Positions 9,001 to 18,000 of a stretch of DNA of 37,422 nt are shown one piece after another; position 1 is the first letter of the stretch; every line of letters begins with the position of its first letter. The stretch is from Candidatus Micrarchaeia archaeon (GTDB lineage: Archaea > Micrarchaeota > Micrarchaeia > Micrarchaeales > CABMGC01), in contig JBMFIM010000008.1 in assembly GCA_049976305.1 (NCBI GenBank), positions 1-37,422 of the forward strand, read 5' to 3'. The position numbers were made by a program.

Positions 9001-12000
9001 ATGTTTTGTATGAGCTCCTTGTGACCTGGCACGTCTATGAACTCATAGGCAGCGCCTTTGTACTTGAGCTCTGCCCTTGTAGTATCTAGCGTAAGGCCGT
9101 ATGCCCTTTCTTCTGAAAAGCTATCTAGCAGGAAGGCAGGCTCAAATTTTTTGCCTAGCCTTTCGCTTGCTCTTTTCGCTTCTGCTATTCTTGACTCGAA
9201 TACCGAATTGGTTTGTATGAGAAGCTGACCTATTAGCGTAGATTTGCCATGGTCCTTATGCCCCAACACAACTATCCTATCCATGACCAGCGCCTATACA
9301 ATTTTGCTACATATATCCGAGAGCCCTAAGCCTCTGCATGATATAAGCCTTTTCCTTGTCCTGCTCTCTGCCTGATCTTTCTTCAACATTGGTTGTTTTT
9401 AGTTCATTTATTATGTCATCTACTGTTTTTGCGTCTGATTTTATTGGCACCGTACAATGTGTGCAGCCAAGGCTTCTATAGCGGTAGCCATTCCTAGAGA
9501 AGTACAGAGGGTTTACAGGTATATGCTCCCTTTTGATGTAGCGCCAAATGTCTATTTCATTCCAGTCCAAAAGCGGGTGCACCCTAACGTGCCCTCCTTC
9601 CTCTATCTTTGAAGAGTAGTCATCCCAAAGCTCTGGTGGCTGATTCTTGTAGTTCCACTTGAAGTTCTTGTCCCTGACGCTCATGTACCTTTCCTTAGCC
9701 CTTATCGCGTGCTCGTCTCTTCTTATCGACACTATTAAAGCTTTAAACTTGTACTTTGCCATTACCTTCTTCAGTGCTTCAGTCTTATTGGCCCCGCAAC
9801 AGCTAAACCCAGAAATCTCAGGTTTTATCTCGCTTTTCGCCACTATCAGGTTGAGCTTCCATTTTTTAACGAGGTCGTCCCTGAATTTATAGGACTCAGG
9901 AAAATCTATGCCGTTATCAATGTGAATTACTGGAAAAGGCACCTTGCCGAGAAAAGCCTTCCTTGCAATTGCAAGCATTGTAGTGCTGTCCTTTCCCATG
10001 CTCCAAAGTGCGGCAATATTGCCAAACTTTTCCTTTGCTTCTCTCATTATGTATATGCTCCTCTCTTCCAATTCATCAAGATCTTGCTCTATCATTTTAT
10101 CAGCTCTTAAAACTTGTTAATATTAAGCAATCCTTTCAGATAGTAAGTTGCGCCCTCTATTTTCTTCTTTTCTTTTATGAAAATCGGTATCTTCGCTATC
10201 GGCCTCTGGGCAGAATCATAAAGCTCAACGTAGGACTTTGTAAGATCCTGCACGCCTCTCAGCTTGCCATCAATGTAGACTGTTTTGTAGTATTTGGCCT
10301 TGCTTTTTGGGAGAAGTTTCTGAAATTTTTCCCAGTTTTCCTTTACTGGATTTCTGTTCAATTCTTCAACGATTTCCTCAAATTTTGAAGCTACCATGGA
10401 ATTACCCGTATCAAACATAACCAAGTGCCTTAAGCTTTTCTATCACGCTATCTTTGCTTGAGCTTCCTTTGCTCTTTAGATCACTTACCATTTCACGCAG
10501 GATGAATGTAACATAATCTGAAACGGACGAGAAGCCAGTATCTTTTATCTGCTCCTGCAGTTTTTCGAATAGGGGCCTCGGAATAGTGATTGTAGTATAC
10601 TTTCTACCTTCTTCGCTCTCCTTGGCTTTTGCCCTTGCTGCTTGATTCATAATTTAATTGAAATACATTAAAATATAAAAAGGTTTGCATAGAAAGAGAG
10701 CAGCACTGTACGCAGAAAAGACCGAAAAAATTTAAATTATGTTTGGACTTAATGAATAAGCATGGATGCAGATGCAGAGTACGTGCTGCAACATGTCTCA
10801 AGGCTTGCAAGGCTCCAGCTAACCGACGAAGAAAGGCAGAAGTTTGCTAAGCAGATACAAGACGTACTTAATCTATTCAACAAGGTCGCAAGTGCAAATG
10901 TTGAAGGCGAGCCGGCGTATCACTGCATCGAAGCAGAGAATGGACTAAGGCCTGACAAGCCCGTAAAATTTGACTGGGATCCGCTTTCAAATGCAAAGCA
11001 TGTTGAAGGAAAATACATAAAAAGTCCAAAGATTGTTTAGGGTGAGCTTATTGAATACATGCGCACTTTAAAGGAGCATATTGAAGCAGTAAAATCAGGT
11101 AGCATAGACCTTGCTGATTTTTCTGCAAAAGTTGTCGAAGAGGCAAAGCGCGTGCAAGCAGCCTATGCTCCCTTCATTTCCGTAGCTGAATCTATAAAGT
11201 TTGAAGTAACACCACAAAGCTTGCTTCCTGGAGTACCCGTGGCAGTAAAAGACAACATCTGTACAAAAGGCATGAGAACTACTGCTGGATCGAAGATTCT
11301 TGAAAACTATGTACCACCATTTGATGCGACTGTTGTGGAAAAGGTAAAGAAGGAGGGAGCAGGCATAGTCGGCAAAACCGCAATGGACGAATTTGGGTTT
11401 GGAACTTTCTCTACAAACTGTGCGTTTGGCGTGCCTAAGAACCCTTTAGATCCGGAGCGTTCATGCGGTGGTAGCAGTGGCGGATCTGCCGGGGCTGTAG
11501 CTGCGTTCAAGCTGCCGATAGTATCGATAGCTGAATCTACTGGTGGCAGTATAACATGCCCTGCAGCATTTACAGGCACAGTAGGCATAACTCCAACCTA
11601 TGGCCTCGTATCAAGATGGGGGCTTATCGATTACGCCAACTCGCTTGACAAGATAGGCACCATAGGAAAGAGCGTTTACGATGCTGCACTTTTGCTATCT
11701 GCTATTGCAGGATACGATGAAAAAGATGCCACTTCTCTGCGAACGCAGAATACAGATTATGCAGCCTTTGCAAAGCCTGACGGAAAGAAGCTAAGGATAG
11801 GCCTGCCAGAAGAATATTTCTCAAGCGCGGTAGACAGTGGCATAATCAAAGAAGTAGAAAGGCTTGCAGACAGGCTAAACTCGCTAGGCTTCGAATTGGA
11901 GCGGATCTCTCTTCCTTCTACAGAACTTGCAATACCCACATACTACATAATTTCAATGTCTGAAGCTTCTACAAACCTTGCGAAATTCAGTGGCCTAAGG

Positions 12001-15000: not shown

Positions 15001-18000
15001 CGAGCCTGAGTATGCAAGAAGCATAGACCTTATCTATAAAGGCGTCGAGCTCAGCTCTGGAGGCCAAAGAGAGCATAGGTATGAGAAGATAATAGAGCAG
15101 GCAAAGGAGAAGGGGCTTAGCGAAGGCAGCTACATGTGGTTTGCCAAATTCTTCAAATATGGCGCTCCGCCACATGGCGGCTTCTCCATAGGCATTGAGC
15201 GCACTGTGATGCAGATGCTTAACATGCAGAACATACTTGAAGCCGCTGCTTTTCCGAGAACCCCTGAAAGAACAGTCCCTTGACCATCAACTACTAGGCT
15301 TGCTAGAATCGGAGAAATAGAAATAAGAAATTAATCAGAGAAGTTATGCTGTGTATAGTATGCAAGAAGAAACGAATGTTGACGAAAAAACGAAAAATCT
15401 CAACAGAGCAAGGCAGTCCCTTATTGAGGAACTGCAGGCAATGATGTGGTACGACGAGAGAATAAGCGCAACGAAAGACAAGGAGCTAGCAGGCATACTT
15501 GCCCACAACAGAGATGACGAAAAGGAGCATGCAACGCTGCTGCTAGAATGGCTTAGAAGGAACGATCCAGCTCTGAAAAAGGAGCTCGAGGAGATACTCT
15601 TCAGCAACAAGCAATTCAAAGATCTCTGGGACTAAGCTATGGAGTGCTTTGTAGGCACGTCTGGTTGGCTTTACTCGTGGAACGAAGATGGAACTCTAGA
15701 TTGGTATATAGCACATAGCGGGCTCAATGCGATAGAGCTTAATGCAAGCTTCTACAGGTTTCCTTTCCCAAACCAGGTCAAGGGCTGGTCCTCTAAGGGA
15801 AGCAGCCTCACTTGGGTGGTAAAGGTAAATAGGCTAATAACCCATGTGCATATGCTTAACAAAAAGGCAGAGGAGCTCTATAGCAGGTTTCTTGAAATAC
15901 TGAAGCCTCTAGATAGCAGGATTGCTTTTTACCTCTTCCAGTTCCCTCCCCATTTCACCACAAACATGAAAGAGCGGCTTCTGGATTTCGCAAGAAAGTT
16001 CGATGAAAAGAAGATGGCTTTTGAATTCAGGAACAGCACATGGTATTCTTTTGATTTCTCTGAGCTTGACTTCGAAGGAGCAATAGTAACACCTGACTCG
16101 CCAGAGATCAGTGGGGAAGTGTGGACTAAGAACAGCACGATCTATCTCAGGTTTCACGGAAGGGAAAGCTGGTACGCCTACAATTATTCTGCTAAAGAGC
16201 TTGAGGAAATGGCAAGGCGTGCCTTGGCGCTCGAACCTAGAAGACTCTTTGCATTCTTCAACAACAATCACGACATGCTTGGCAACGCAAGGTCTTTTTT
16301 GCGTATACTTAGCCAGGTGGGACCTTGCAAAAAGTAGTAGTTGCTAAAGGCCTTACTAAAAGATTCAAAGACGTAACAGCAATAAATGACATTACATTCA
16401 GCATGGAAGAAGGAAGCTTTAATCTGCTTGTAGGACCGAACGGCTCTGGCAAGACAACGCTGGAAAGGCTTATTGTAGGTCTCTATGAGCCGACTGAAGG
16501 AAGTGTAAAAATATTTGGCGAGGAGGCAAGCGCAGCGCCTGTTTCGGTTATGGCGAAAGTAGGCTATGTAGGAGAAAATTACGGCTTGTACGACAATCTT
16601 TCGGTGATTTCCAATCTACTTTTCTTTTCTAGACTTCTAGGAATCGAAAAGAGACAAGCACTAGAAAGGATTGACAAACTCCTCAGCATGCTAGGTGCGG
16701 GAGAGTTTGTAAAGAGGAAAGTCTCAACATTGAGCAGGGGAACAAAGCAAAAAATAGCAGTGTGCAGGGCTTTGCTTGCAAACCCCAGACTACTGGTGCT
16801 TGACGAGCCTACCGCATTCCTAGATCCTGAATCTGCTGAAAAGCTTAGAGAAGCGCTTGCAGAACTTGTAAAAGAAGGCACTACTGTAGTATATGCCACT
16901 CAGAGGCTTGACGAACTAAGCAAATTCAATGCCGATGTTCTTGTGCTTAAAAAGGGCAAGCTCGTTGGATACGGAGACCTTGACAGTGTTGTAAAAATGA
17001 TTAGAGGAATAGAGATAGAAATTTCATATTTGGGCAGACTTTCAAAGGAGCAAGAGAAGGCTATGAAGACTCTTGGCGGCAGGCTCATGGGCAAAAGGAT
17101 TGTATTCAGCATAGGAAGCATAGGTAAGATACCGAAATTAGCGAAAGAGGCGGTGGAGGCTGGGATCAACATTACCTCAATAACCTTCTTGGATTACAAT
17201 CTGCGATGATAAAATGAATGTAGCAAGAGTTTGGGCAATAGTTGGCAAAGACCTTGCTGACGCTTTTAGCAGTGCTGAAATATACGGCCCGATGCTTGGC
17301 ATACCGCTGTTCTTTGCAATACTGCTTCCTTTATTCACTGTTTATGTTTCACAATATGCAGGTACAGAACTTGCTGCAAAGCTTTTGGGAATAGAAGCAA
17401 GCATAATAGGCGGTAATGTTGCAAACAGACTTGCTTTTATTGTTTATTTCTCGATAAACATACTCGGCCCCATATTCCTTACAATGCCAATCATAACCTC
17501 CTCAGTCATAGCTGCTGACTGTTTTGTAGGAGAAAAAGAAAGCAAAACCGCAGAATCTTTGCTCACTTCCCCTATAACTAAAGGTGAGCTGTTTTTGGGA
17601 AAGATACTAGCTTCGGCAATACCTGCCTTTGGAATCACTATCGCAGTCTTCTTGATCTTTGGAGGCATAATAAACTATTTCACAAACCTTTACTACCACA
17701 CGTTAGTATTTCCGAATACGGACTGGTATCTTATGCTTGCAGATGCGCCGGCTTTGATAATGGCCACTATCGGACTTGTGGTAATAGTCTCGTCTAAAGT
17801 GAAGAGCATTAAAGAGGCGCAACAGATAAGCGCCCTGATCGCACTGCCCATATTCATTATACCTTTTGTTTCTGTATTCGCTCTTGTTTCGCTCTCCCCG
17901 GAGTTTTTCCTTGGCCTCCTTCTAGTTCTTGCAGTAGTTGCCCTCTTAGTTATATATCTGGGAATAAGGACCTTTAAAAAGGAAAGGCTAATCGCAGCGT

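Follow-up and report, generated by a model that had tools for sequence, protein, structure and literature searches.

A gatCAB unit with its own tRNA-Asn in Micrarchaeales suggests two same-anticodon tRNAs for two charging routes

The window analysed here, the whole stretch of 37,422 nucleotides of contig JBMFIM010000008.1 (assembly GCA_049976305.1, Candidatus Micrarchaeia archaeon), carries the genes for the three subunits of GatCAB followed by a tRNA-Asn gene, and the host genome also encodes AsnRS (contig C19), GatDE and a second, resident tRNA-Asn (C9:16357-16429). Hosts that keep AsnRS generally keep such a second, different tRNA-Asn as well, a pattern suggesting that separate charging routes are served by two tRNAs of one anticodon. 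In the interpretation that we consider moderately probable, gatCAB of one GatB lineage (lineage A, enzyme GatCAB-A) and the adjoining tRNA-Asn make up one unit, co-transcribed and moved horizontally, whose enzyme would need its own tRNA while the resident tRNA would serve AsnRS. Gene order, linkage, a tRNA signature, co-occurrence and tree conflict are the observations from which these enzyme preferences may be inferred.

Organization of the locus

The order gatC-gatA-gatB-tRNA-Asn-aspS proposed by the first-pass annotation was borne out, with all four protein genes, including those of the three amidotransferase subunits, exceeding their NCBIfam cut-offs (Table 1); the AsnRS gene on C19 and the separate tRNA-Asn on C9 were also found again. 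The GatA translation contains the amidase-signature motifs, and alignment to solved GatB showed the residues that serve as metal and zinc ligands, in a protein with the Pfam domains GatB_N and GatB_Yqey (a YqeY-like tail). On the family scores and motifs, the three proteins are predicted to be a GatCAB amidotransferase.

Table 1 Features of the gatCAB-tRNA-Asn locus (positions in the window)
Feature	Position	Strand	Product and evidence
gatC	10762..11040	+	92 aa; TIGR00135, 63.3 bits (cut-off 47.1)
gatA	11059..12462	+	467 aa; TIGR00132, 485.4 bits (cut-off 481.1)
gatB, lineage A	12452..13867	+	471 aa; TIGR00133, 481 bits (cut-off 314.8)
Cassette tRNA-Asn(GUU)	13850..13923	+	ARAGORN; fold; signature table
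gatB stop codon TAG	13865..13867	+	Sequence; made of tRNA D-loop bases 16-18, A17 included
AT-rich TATA-like stretch	13935..13947	+	Sequence; about 25-35 nt 5' of the aspS start
aspS, archaeal-type AspRS	13970..15283	+	NF003483, 475.7 bits; TIGR00458, 390.2 bits

The last 18 bases of gatB (five codons and the stop) lie inside the tRNA-Asn gene. The cloverleaf of this cassette tRNA (fold z = -3.15) has, in standard numbering as assigned by us, G1-C72, G73, a 5-nt variable loop, an 8-nt D-loop with A17 and a T-loop with G59-U60. Both tRNA-Asn genes of this genome have G1-C72, a 5-nt variable loop and the same anticodon and G73, and they match at 30 bases spanning the anticodon arm and variable loop, but the elbow differs, the resident D-loop being one base shorter. 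The tRNA-Asp has a 4-nt variable loop and U49. These features agree with the archaeal GatCAB recognition rule, in which the tRNA-Asn substrate has G1-C72 and a 5-nt variable loop and tRNA-Asp a 4-nt loop (PMC2330236); U49 of tRNA-Asp is also part of the rule. No PF00733 match (AsnB) was found in this genome, which is 93.7% complete, nor did genome tblastn reveal an AsnRS-like AsnA paralogue, the bacterial AsnA family lying outside that search.

Two GatB lineages in the order

GatB was found in 51 of the 101 genomes of the order searched, most of them incomplete metagenome-assembled genomes, and fell into two lineages, A (20 genomes) and B (31 genomes; E values of 1e-61 to 1e-86). The earlier figure of about a fifth of the order (13/61) was thus too low, lineage B having been missed. 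A tRNA-Asn lies directly 3' of gatB in 18 of the 20 lineage-A genomes, with a gap between gatB stop and tRNA of -18 to +33 nt in all 18 loci; in G001 it lies 1 kb upstream on the opposite strand, and in G008 the contig ends at the locus. Lineage-B GatB is shorter, with an altered tail motif, and brings no tRNA (0/12 loci read; A17 tRNA in 0/31 genomes), so the claim that a tRNA nearly always stands behind gatB holds for lineage A and fails for lineage B. AsnRS was present in 15 of the 20 genomes with lineage A and in 18 of the 31 with lineage B. In the other 13 lineage-B genomes, where it was not found and which include the single-contig G018, the tRNA with the short D-loop must be the one that lineage B uses. 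AsnB was found in none of the 51 GatB genomes versus 7 of the 50 others, and to this extent the proposed role in asparagine synthesis stands within the order.

The A17 signature and its co-occurrence with AsnRS

The A17 D-loop tRNA was present in 19 of the 20 lineage-A genomes versus none of the 81 others in the order, and its loss was seen in no informative lineage-A genome. Where the resident tRNA was present, AsnRS was too (13/13 lineage-A genomes); where it was not found, AsnRS occurred in two of seven genomes (Fisher p = 0.0014, a value overstated because related genomes are not independent), and all five AsnRS-less genomes also lacked the resident tRNA. A long distance separates asnS from the resident tRNA where it can be read (e.g., in G012, G021 and G015), so their joint loss is not due to physical linkage. 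Among tRNA-Asn matches near lineage-A-type gatB, A17 was present in 48/48 and G59-U60 in 47/48; a hand count found G59 in 1 of 91 resident tRNAs. Both features have been retained in three phyla despite drift in the stems, including at loci with the tRNA 1-2.5 kb away (L120, L129, L136 and G001).

In six genomes that encode AsnRS, the cassette tRNA was the sole tRNA-Asn found: G029 (a single contig, looked at three times), G019, G102, G110, G113 and G124. For G029 and G019, an intron-bearing tRNA-Asn was found neither in the 20 regions read (of 40 and 32 tRNA matches) nor by a second pattern. The "dedicated tRNA" described previously is therefore supported in one direction: by the pairing pattern the enzyme appears to need its tRNA, but these six genomes show no other tRNA-Asn for their AsnRS. 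As described earlier, the single-contig G012, without GatB, has one tRNA-Asn. Two tRNA-Asn genes were seen again in G026 and G032 and also in G098, but G092 has one and no GatB; genome labels may differ between the surveys.

A17 was considered as an invention of the cassette, an idea rejected because many metagenome and viral tRNA-Asn have this base. Genes of gat type lie near only 5 of 110 metagenome A17 tRNA-Asn matches and near none of 118 viral matches; no gat gene was found in 120 viral loci with this tRNA type. Retention of A17 merely as part of the gatB stop codon was likewise rejected, as it persists without overlap and as C16-A17-G18.

Horizontal spread

The gatCAB-tRNA-Asn unit also occurs in Aenigmarchaeota-like genomes and Bathyarchaeia. 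Of the Bathyarchaeia carriers, 14 of 16 have both tRNAs and AsnRS, which replicates the pattern of the order independently, whereas native Bathyarchaeia gatB genes have no tRNA nearby (0/8); one genome, G303, has an A17 tRNA alongside a native-type GatB. The cassette D-loop in Bathyarchaeia is one base shorter than that of the resident, which makes the "one extra D-loop base" noted earlier host-relative, correct for the present genome but not a general rule. AsnB-like genes were found in 5/5 cassette-bearing Bathyarchaeia, which counts against the claimed asparagine-synthesis role in these hosts.

GatB trees support horizontal transfer within the order and between phyla, in agreement with the "portable" nature claimed for gatCAB plus tRNA-Asn. 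Within the order, the GatB of G008 is 74% identical to a family-f3 GatB, versus 51% for GatE (AU p = 2e-36), and between phyla, monophyly of Bathyarchaeia GatB was rejected (AU p = 0.026). The test did not reject a single origin of lineage-A GatB within Micrarchaeales (monophyly, AU p = 0.185), and loss may therefore account for much of the patchy distribution. A single-clade test of Aenigmarchaeota GatB was set aside because it contained a row from another GatB clade. Within one genus the whole block is present or missing between aspS and tRNA-Asp (G009, G027 and G087 versus G035), and the GC and GC3 of the cassette match the host.

The aspartyl-tRNA synthetase

The gene aspS, earlier placed inside the portable cassette, is a neighbour and not a fixed part, since among the 20 lineage-A genomes it follows the tRNA in seven and lies immediately upstream in five, and at least three clades of the AspRS tree adjoin the unit. 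It codes for the sole AspRS found by tblastn in this genome (G000); G026, G032 and G098 also have one, and 5 of 20 lineage-A genomes have two. The protein scores above the NCBIfam aspS_nondisc cut-off (390.2 versus 368.4 bits), although this model may not separate discriminating from non-discriminating enzymes, and its closest solved structures (3NEL/1B8A, E 1e-121) belong to an enzyme that we take to be discriminating. In the anticodon-binding loop it has Lys, where the solved non-discriminating enzymes (1N9W and 1WYD) have Pro, a mark of non-discriminating AspRS. We considered whether this Lys means a dead route and rejected the idea: in G039, G041, G069 and G050, where GatCAB-A is present and AsnRS was not found, the only AspRS carries this Lys too. 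Unless a gene is missing from every one of these assemblies, the residue cannot prevent the charging of tRNA-Asn. Charging of tRNA-Asn by the AspRS of this genome is putative.

Proposed role and alternative explanations

In the interpretation that we favour, the host AspRS would charge the cassette tRNA with Asp, which GatCAB-A would then amidate, so that cells without AsnB would gain a source of asparagine, with Gln-tRNA left to GatDE. The GatB tail, which is described as binding the D-loop (PMC2811023), may grip the tRNA elbow formed by the D- and T-loops, and GatCAB-A would work well only with the A17/G59-U60 elbow; it would therefore have to bring its tRNA into hosts whose tRNA-Asn has another elbow. 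The shorter GatB and altered tail motif of lineage B, which brings no tRNA, speak for this. The resident tRNA would serve AsnRS and be lost along with it, possibly because GatCAB-A cannot rescue it. The dependence would be one-way, as AsnRS can probably charge both tRNAs. Counting against this interpretation are that both tRNAs carry the published archaeal determinants, that the enzyme of lineage B functions with the resident tRNA, that A17 is a common tRNA-Asn type, that monophyly of lineage-A GatB in Micrarchaeales was not rejected, that most of the genomes are incomplete, the A17 tRNA beside native GatB in G303, the AsnB-like genes of Bathyarchaeia carriers and the Lys of AspRS.

Alternatively, the tRNA may simply ride along because it is joined to the 3' end of gatB and shares its transcript, both tRNAs fitting both routes and the benefit being co-regulation or dosage, not specificity. 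The tight stop-tRNA gap in 18/18 loci, which would make separate loss hard, and the wide occurrence of A17 agree with such hitchhiking, as do the archaeal GatCAB rules as given in the literature cited, namely a 5-nt variable loop with antideterminants only in tRNA-Asp (PMC2330236 and PMC1635274): the cassette and resident tRNAs both satisfy them, so no known rule excludes the resident. Moreover, in Bdellovibrio, AsnRS and ND-AspRS are both reported as proven to use tRNA-Asn (PMC4206432). We nevertheless regard hitchhiking as rather improbable, for it leaves unexplained why the unlinked resident tRNA is absent from every AsnRS-less lineage-A genome while AsnRS accompanies it wherever it is present, and why A17 and G59-U60 persist over three phyla, even at a distance. 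At the other extreme, the cassette tRNA could be used only by AspRS and GatCAB and the resident only by AsnRS. Two tRNAs together with AsnRS in 12 genomes of the order and 14 Bathyarchaeia-type genomes would fit such orthogonal pairs, for which the isoacceptor preference of SepRS versus CysRS in Methanosarcina mazei (cited in PMC8762117) offers a precedent; they are unlikely, given the six AsnRS genomes with only the cassette tRNA, the position of asnS directly 3' of the cassette tRNA in L121 and L142, and the report that the identity elements of E. coli AsnRS are the anticodon and G73 (PMC13433404), which are the same in both tRNAs.

Integration of a mobile element at the tRNA, or carriage of the unit by viruses, is very improbable. 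The presence or absence of the block as a whole within one genus would suit either; yet in this genome the unit is not bordered by a partial repeat of the tRNA, no integrase was found among the 36 window ORFs scanned, the base composition is that of the host, the 120 viral A17 loci hold no gat gene, and the tRNA type is absent from relatives, making it cargo and not a host site. The least probable of all, by a small margin, is that GatCAB makes Gln-tRNA(Gln), or is idle because AspRS is discriminating, as the structural matches and the Lys might imply: the genome encodes GatD and GatE, the tRNA linked to the unit is Asn in every case, the four genomes in which no AsnRS was found have a single Lys-type AspRS, and the GatCAB of M. 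thermautotrophicus is described as unable to use archaeal Glu-tRNA(Gln) (PMC2330236).

Beyond the favoured interpretation of a GatCAB-A that depends on its own tRNA, a private and transferable tRNA channel may be imagined, in which a same-anticodon tRNA-Asn pair is sorted by its elbow. Here the discriminating-looking AspRS would load Asp only on tRNA held by GatCAB-A, the resident tRNA would thus never be mischarged, one operon transcribing both enzyme and tRNA would switch on de novo asparagine synthesis, and excision of the tRNA from the transcript would remove the gatB stop codon. Taken as a whole, this extension is speculative and we doubt it.

Relation to known systems

Archaeal asparagine transamidation by ND-AspRS and GatCAB, as described for M. 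thermautotrophicus and M. barkeri (PMC2330236, PMC1635274 and PMC2811023), resembles the present system in its three subunits, the use of GatDE for Gln and a G1-C72 tRNA-Asn with a 5-nt variable loop. It differs in that the unit found here occurs alongside AsnRS (in 15 of the 20 lineage-A genomes), includes a further tRNA-Asn joined to its operon and has spread horizontally. A 2008 review states that archaeal GatCAB is encoded only if AsnRS is absent (PMC2330236), a textbook claim that is broken here. The dual routes of Thermus, Deinococcus and Bdellovibrio likewise combine AsnRS and GatCAB without AsnA or AsnB, whose absence makes the indirect route the asparagine source (PMC2330236 and PMC4206432). 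According to these accounts, which describe no second route-linked tRNA, such cells acquire an AspRS or relax one, their tRNA being of the U1-A72 type; in our genome, likewise with AsnRS and GatCAB and no AsnA or AsnB detected, genome tblastn found no second AspRS and it is a tRNA that was added. SepRS-SepCysS operons of DPANN archaea and bacteria, as reported, also encode an indirect route, sometimes with their own tRNA-Cys, and direct and indirect routes may favour different isoacceptors, as in M. mazei (PMC8762117). However, those operons serve cysteine and have a dedicated synthetase, whereas here the synthetase would be borrowed from the host and specificity would rest with the enzyme of the second step and with the elbow of the tRNA.

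An indirect aminoacylation route has thus crossed phyla carrying its tRNA, the very barrier usually invoked against such transfers. Natural tRNA pairs that are nearly identical save for the elbow allow a direct test of archaeal GatCAB recognition, which is unsettled, and lineage B, which solved the same problem in the same order without a tRNA, provides a built-in control. If the selectivity is true, the pair could also serve as a basis for building orthogonal routes of tRNA-dependent amino-acid synthesis.

Additional observations

The TATA-like stretch (Table 1) is a possible promoter of aspS's own; a sigma-70 promoter scan uses a bacterial model inapplicable to archaea. Archaeal-type GatCAB is marked by a cradle loop shorter than the bacterial 3-10 turn; in the HMMER alignment, and as a feature of that alignment alone, the GatB cradle loop has a one-residue gap against each of the four bacterial GatB proteins shown. 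Two U1-A72 tRNA-Asn in G084 and G022, considered as bacterial-type partners of lineage B, were dropped as contaminants, since their contigs (887 and 944 bases) are AT-rich and have a gene order that we read as organelle-like. Two archaeal contigs, L355 and L412, carry an A17 tRNA with gatB about 1.3-1.6 kb away on the opposite strand.

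Organization of the cassette

The window spans contig C8 of G000, a genome of 723 kb (completeness 93.7%) whose closest titled relatives, among the matches listed in a species-wide scan, are Micrarchaeaceae. The gatC, gatA, gatB and archaeal-type aspS genes of the window passed the NCBIfam cut-offs, and D-loop bases 16-18 of the cassette tRNA form the gatB stop codon (tRNA numbering is our own assignment). Outside the window, G000 encodes AsnRS, GatD, GatE and a second, resident tRNA-Asn; the gatC-gatA-gatB-tRNA-Asn-aspS cassette, the AsnRS and the separate tRNA-Asn named in the first-pass annotation were all found. 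The window aspS is the sole AspRS gene found, and AsnB (PF00733) had no match in this 93.7% complete genome. The two tRNA-Asn are identical over a 30-base stretch covering the anticodon arm and the variable loop; their differences lie in acceptor-stem pairs 5-7, the D-loop, one T-stem pair and T-loop bases 59-60. Elsewhere, G000 carries two features unusual for archaea, a tRNA-Ile whose anticodon is TAT and a LysRS-like frame of class II.

Features of the cassette and of other loci, by contig of G000 unless stated otherwise
Feature	Location	Strand	Remark
CysD and CysN-like genes	C8:8079-10650		two small ORFs upstream; divergent from gatC
gatC	C8:10762-11040	+	
gatA	C8:11059-12462	+	
gatB	C8:12452-13867	+	
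Cassette tRNA-Asn(GTT)	C8:13850-13923		overlaps last 18 bases of gatB
aspS	C8:13970-15283	+	
Encapsulin-associated ferritin-like gene	C8:15351-15635		directly 3' of aspS
tRNA-Ile (TAT)	C2:37828-37903		
Resident tRNA-Asn	C9:16357-16429		
Class II LysRS-like frame	C10:24048-25544		
tRNA-Tyr and tRNA-Asp	C16:15168-15646		adjoining, short ORF-like stretch between, no aspS
Three tandem AspRS-like genes (L218)	G114:C34:546-4636		no AsnRS found in genome

Two GatB lineages in the Micrarchaeales

In a sample of 101 genomes of the order, G000 included, GatB matches split into two bands. Lineage A comprises 20 genomes, of which 19 match at E <= 1e-138 and the last is the divergent G001. Lineage B comprises 31 (E 1e-61 to 1e-86), its frames being about 40 aa shorter; it was assigned in 12 genomes by a tree, as a separate long-branched clade, and in 19 by score band and length only. 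The remaining 50 had GatE-level matches only, or none. The first-pass count of GatB in 13 of 61 genomes describes lineage A but not the order, lineage B (31/101) having been left out. Similarly, the tRNA-Asn reported behind gatB holds for lineage A, where in 18 genomes its start lies -18 to +33 bases relative to the end of the gatB stop, but not for lineage B, where none was near gatB in the 12 genomes whose locus was read. A bacterial-type AspRS is often, by a side observation mostly, encoded downstream of lineage B (one checked). Lineage B (loci L021-L030, L090 and L095) is often found no more than about 12 kb from asnS. In genomes without GatB, asnB takes a similar position near asnS, as though lineage B and asnB were asparagine modules that can replace each other.

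A tRNA-Asn pattern allowing any D-loop length matched in 96 of the 101 genomes. We found that the 8-nt D-loop with A17 was present in 19 of the 20 lineage A genomes and in none of the 81 others; in the twentieth, G008, the sequence stops 7 bases past the gatB stop. Around gatB, A17 occurred in 48/48 tRNA-Asn matches (one row read anew owing to an intron) and G59-U60 in 47/48, and by hand count G59 occurred in 1 of 91 resident tRNAs (93 matches minus two contaminant rows). L091 and L092, two nearly identical contigs that are AT-rich, resemble organelle DNA and bear a U1-A72 tRNA-Asn, come from two Micrarchaeales bins and are contamination. G007, G020 and G057 also carry second copies of the resident type, and a pair of tRNA-Asn genes is therefore not by itself diagnostic of lineage A. 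By a crude pattern, a TATA-like stretch lay within 60 bases upstream of the tRNA in 1 of 18 cassettes versus about half of the 38 tRNA genes of G000, suggesting that the cassette tRNA is likely co-transcribed with gatCAB; the resident tRNA-Asn of G000 also lacks such a stretch.

The gatB stop lies inside the tRNA gene in the window (13850-13867) and in L002-L005, L010, L015-L017, L111, L132, L134, L137, L141, L142, L146 and L185, with overlaps of 18 bases (stop in the D-loop) or 10 bases (stop at tRNA bases 8-10), and these loci are scattered over the GatB tree. At such loci, tRNA 5' processing would deprive the gatB mRNA of its stop codon. In L126 and L140, the cassette tRNA has oddly placed introns, and ARAGORN mistakes it for tRNA-Pro or tRNA-Lys; in L137, it is duplicated in tandem.

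Carriers outside the order

The species-wide scan gave at least 80 loci, two being left out as duplicates of order genomes. Among the loci listed, at least 33 fell in the GatB clade of lineage A, and a tRNA-Asn lay within 2.6 kb in 28 of these 33 (in two of them it was recognized once introns were read through, and three of the five loci without one are cut short), but in only one of 45 listed rows of the neighbouring clade. The carriers among the matches listed are titled Micrarchaeota, Aenigmatarchaeota, Bathyarchaeia or unclassified; L141 and L185 are titled Patescibacteria and Marsarchaeota, whereas their genes group with Bathyarchaeia and Micrarchaeales family f3.

Whole-genome searches covered 50 genomes from the listed loci and 91 Bathyarchaeia. 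Cassette tRNA, resident tRNA and AsnRS occurred together in 14 of 16 Bathyarchaeia-type carriers, whose resident D-loops usually have 9 nt and so exceed that of the cassette. The rule of one more D-loop base than in the resident tRNA therefore holds in Micrarchaeales but fails here; what stays constant is the elbow (D-loop and T-loop) of the cassette tRNA. Each of five carriers tested had a single GatB. Native-type GatB was present in 43 of the 91 Bathyarchaeia, with no tRNA nearby in any of eight loci read. The A17 type was found in the seed carrier only among 151 genomes searched from the phylum that includes the Bathyarchaeia (92 matched); in the class sample, where the pattern misses many intron-bearing genes and matched 33/91, G303 has an A17 tRNA with native-type GatB. 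In Aenigmarchaeota-like carriers, the cassette tRNA was mostly the sole tRNA-Asn seen. Three cassette-free Bathyarchaeia (G171, G235 and G251) have native-type GatB and AsnRS together, and in five Bathyarchaeia-type carriers (L234-L238) the resident tRNA-Asn, not that of the cassette, lies about 1.1-1.2 kb from aspS.

Probable horizontal transfer

The GatE tree follows families but the GatB tree does not. For example, GatB of G008 (family f1) nests among f3 genomes (support 100/100; AU p = 2e-36), being 74% identical to a family f3 GatB, compared with 51% for GatE. Micrarchaeales and cassette-type Bathyarchaeia share 50-54% identity in GatB and 37-40% in GatE, and a single clade of all Bathyarchaeia GatB was rejected (p = 0.026; LG+G4, long branches present). 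Monophyly of lineage A within the Micrarchaeales could not be rejected (p = 0.185), so the patchiness would partly reflect inheritance with repeated loss. These trees carry no root, and no donor is named. Three genomes of genus g28, one of them the unpublished G027, have a gatC-gatA-gatB-tRNA-Asn block flanked by aspS and tRNA-Asp; the site lacks the block in G035, also of g28, and in G029, which carries it elsewhere. G000 and the window showed neither an att repeat nor an integrase nor unusual composition, and no gat genes were found in 120 viral loci with the A17 tRNA type.

Use of the two tRNAs

AsnRS was found in 78 of the 101 order genomes, including all 13 lineage A genomes with a resident tRNA. 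The other seven lineage A genomes showed the cassette tRNA only, and five of these lack AsnRS (G025, G039, G041, G050 and G069; a family search there confirmed AspRS and LysRS only). The strength of this association (Fisher p = 0.0014) is overstated because related genomes were counted separately; G039 and G041, for instance, belong to one genus. G111, G114 and single-chromosome G119 likewise have the cassette tRNA only, with AsnRS not found. Without two unpublished rows, G027 (lineage A, two tRNAs, AsnRS) and G068 (lineage B, no AsnRS), the A17 tRNA occurs in 18/19 lineage A genomes, AsnRS in 12/12 with and 2/7 without a resident tRNA, and AsnRS is undetected in 12/30 lineage B genomes. The asnS and resident tRNA genes are not adjacent. 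The cassette tRNA is probably a usable substrate for AsnRS, since both occur without a resident tRNA in G029 (one contig), G019, G102, G110, G113 and G124, and asnS directly follows the cassette tRNA in L121 and L142; the dependence looks one-way.

Full AsnB matches (E <= 1e-53) occurred in 7/101 genomes and 0/51 with GatB (p = 0.006, overstated because kin are not independent; twelve weaker matches, ten in GatB genomes, were left uncounted), and 43 of the 50 GatB-less genomes also had none. This distribution agrees with a role of GatCAB in supplying asparagine, which is described for Thermus and Deinococcus (PMC2330236); that role does not clearly hold in Bathyarchaeia, where each of five carriers searched has AsnB-like genes.

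The unit of GatCAB and tRNA-Asn is real and conserved, a variant of a known pathway, and apparently undescribed: searches of openly available papers, a set that omits most subscription papers, gave no account of a gatCAB-linked second archaeal tRNA-Asn. With moderate confidence, we favour as the most likely a model in which AspRS would put Asp on the cassette tRNA and GatCAB-A, the lineage A enzyme, would amidate it there, its GatB tail requiring the A17/G59-U60 elbow, while the resident tRNA would serve AsnRS and be lost along with it; all the specificity steps are inferred. The S. aureus GatB tail binds the D-loop (PMC2811023). The main objection is twofold: the published archaeal GatCAB rules (PMC2330236, PMC1635274) are satisfied by both tRNA-Asn, and the A17 loop is common in other tRNA-Asn, so A17 may simply be the older form. 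Lineage B, whose GatB tail is changed relative to lineage A, must use the resident tRNA in the 13 of its 31 genomes in which AsnRS was not detected, which shows that such an elbow requirement is not universal.

AspRS

In G000 aspS adjoins the cassette, but it is no fixed part of the unit: in lineage A, aspS is 3' of the tRNA in 7/20 genomes, just upstream in five and elsewhere in eight. The AspRS encoded beside the cassette fall into at least three clades, and that of G000 also occurs in genomes without any GatB. G000 AspRS, like most AspRS aligned from the order, has Lys where the solved non-discriminating enzymes 1N9W and 1WYD have Pro. Lys instead of Pro at this column is taken to mark discriminating enzymes, a rule for which literature searches yielded no paper. 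Four AsnRS-less lineage A genomes have a single AspRS, with Lys, so the Lys type is most likely still able to charge tRNA-Asn. In G119, an additional AspRS has Pro. Relatives share a conserved tRNA-Tyr - aspS - tRNA-Asp site (L333; L250), whose aspS differs in clade from that of G000.
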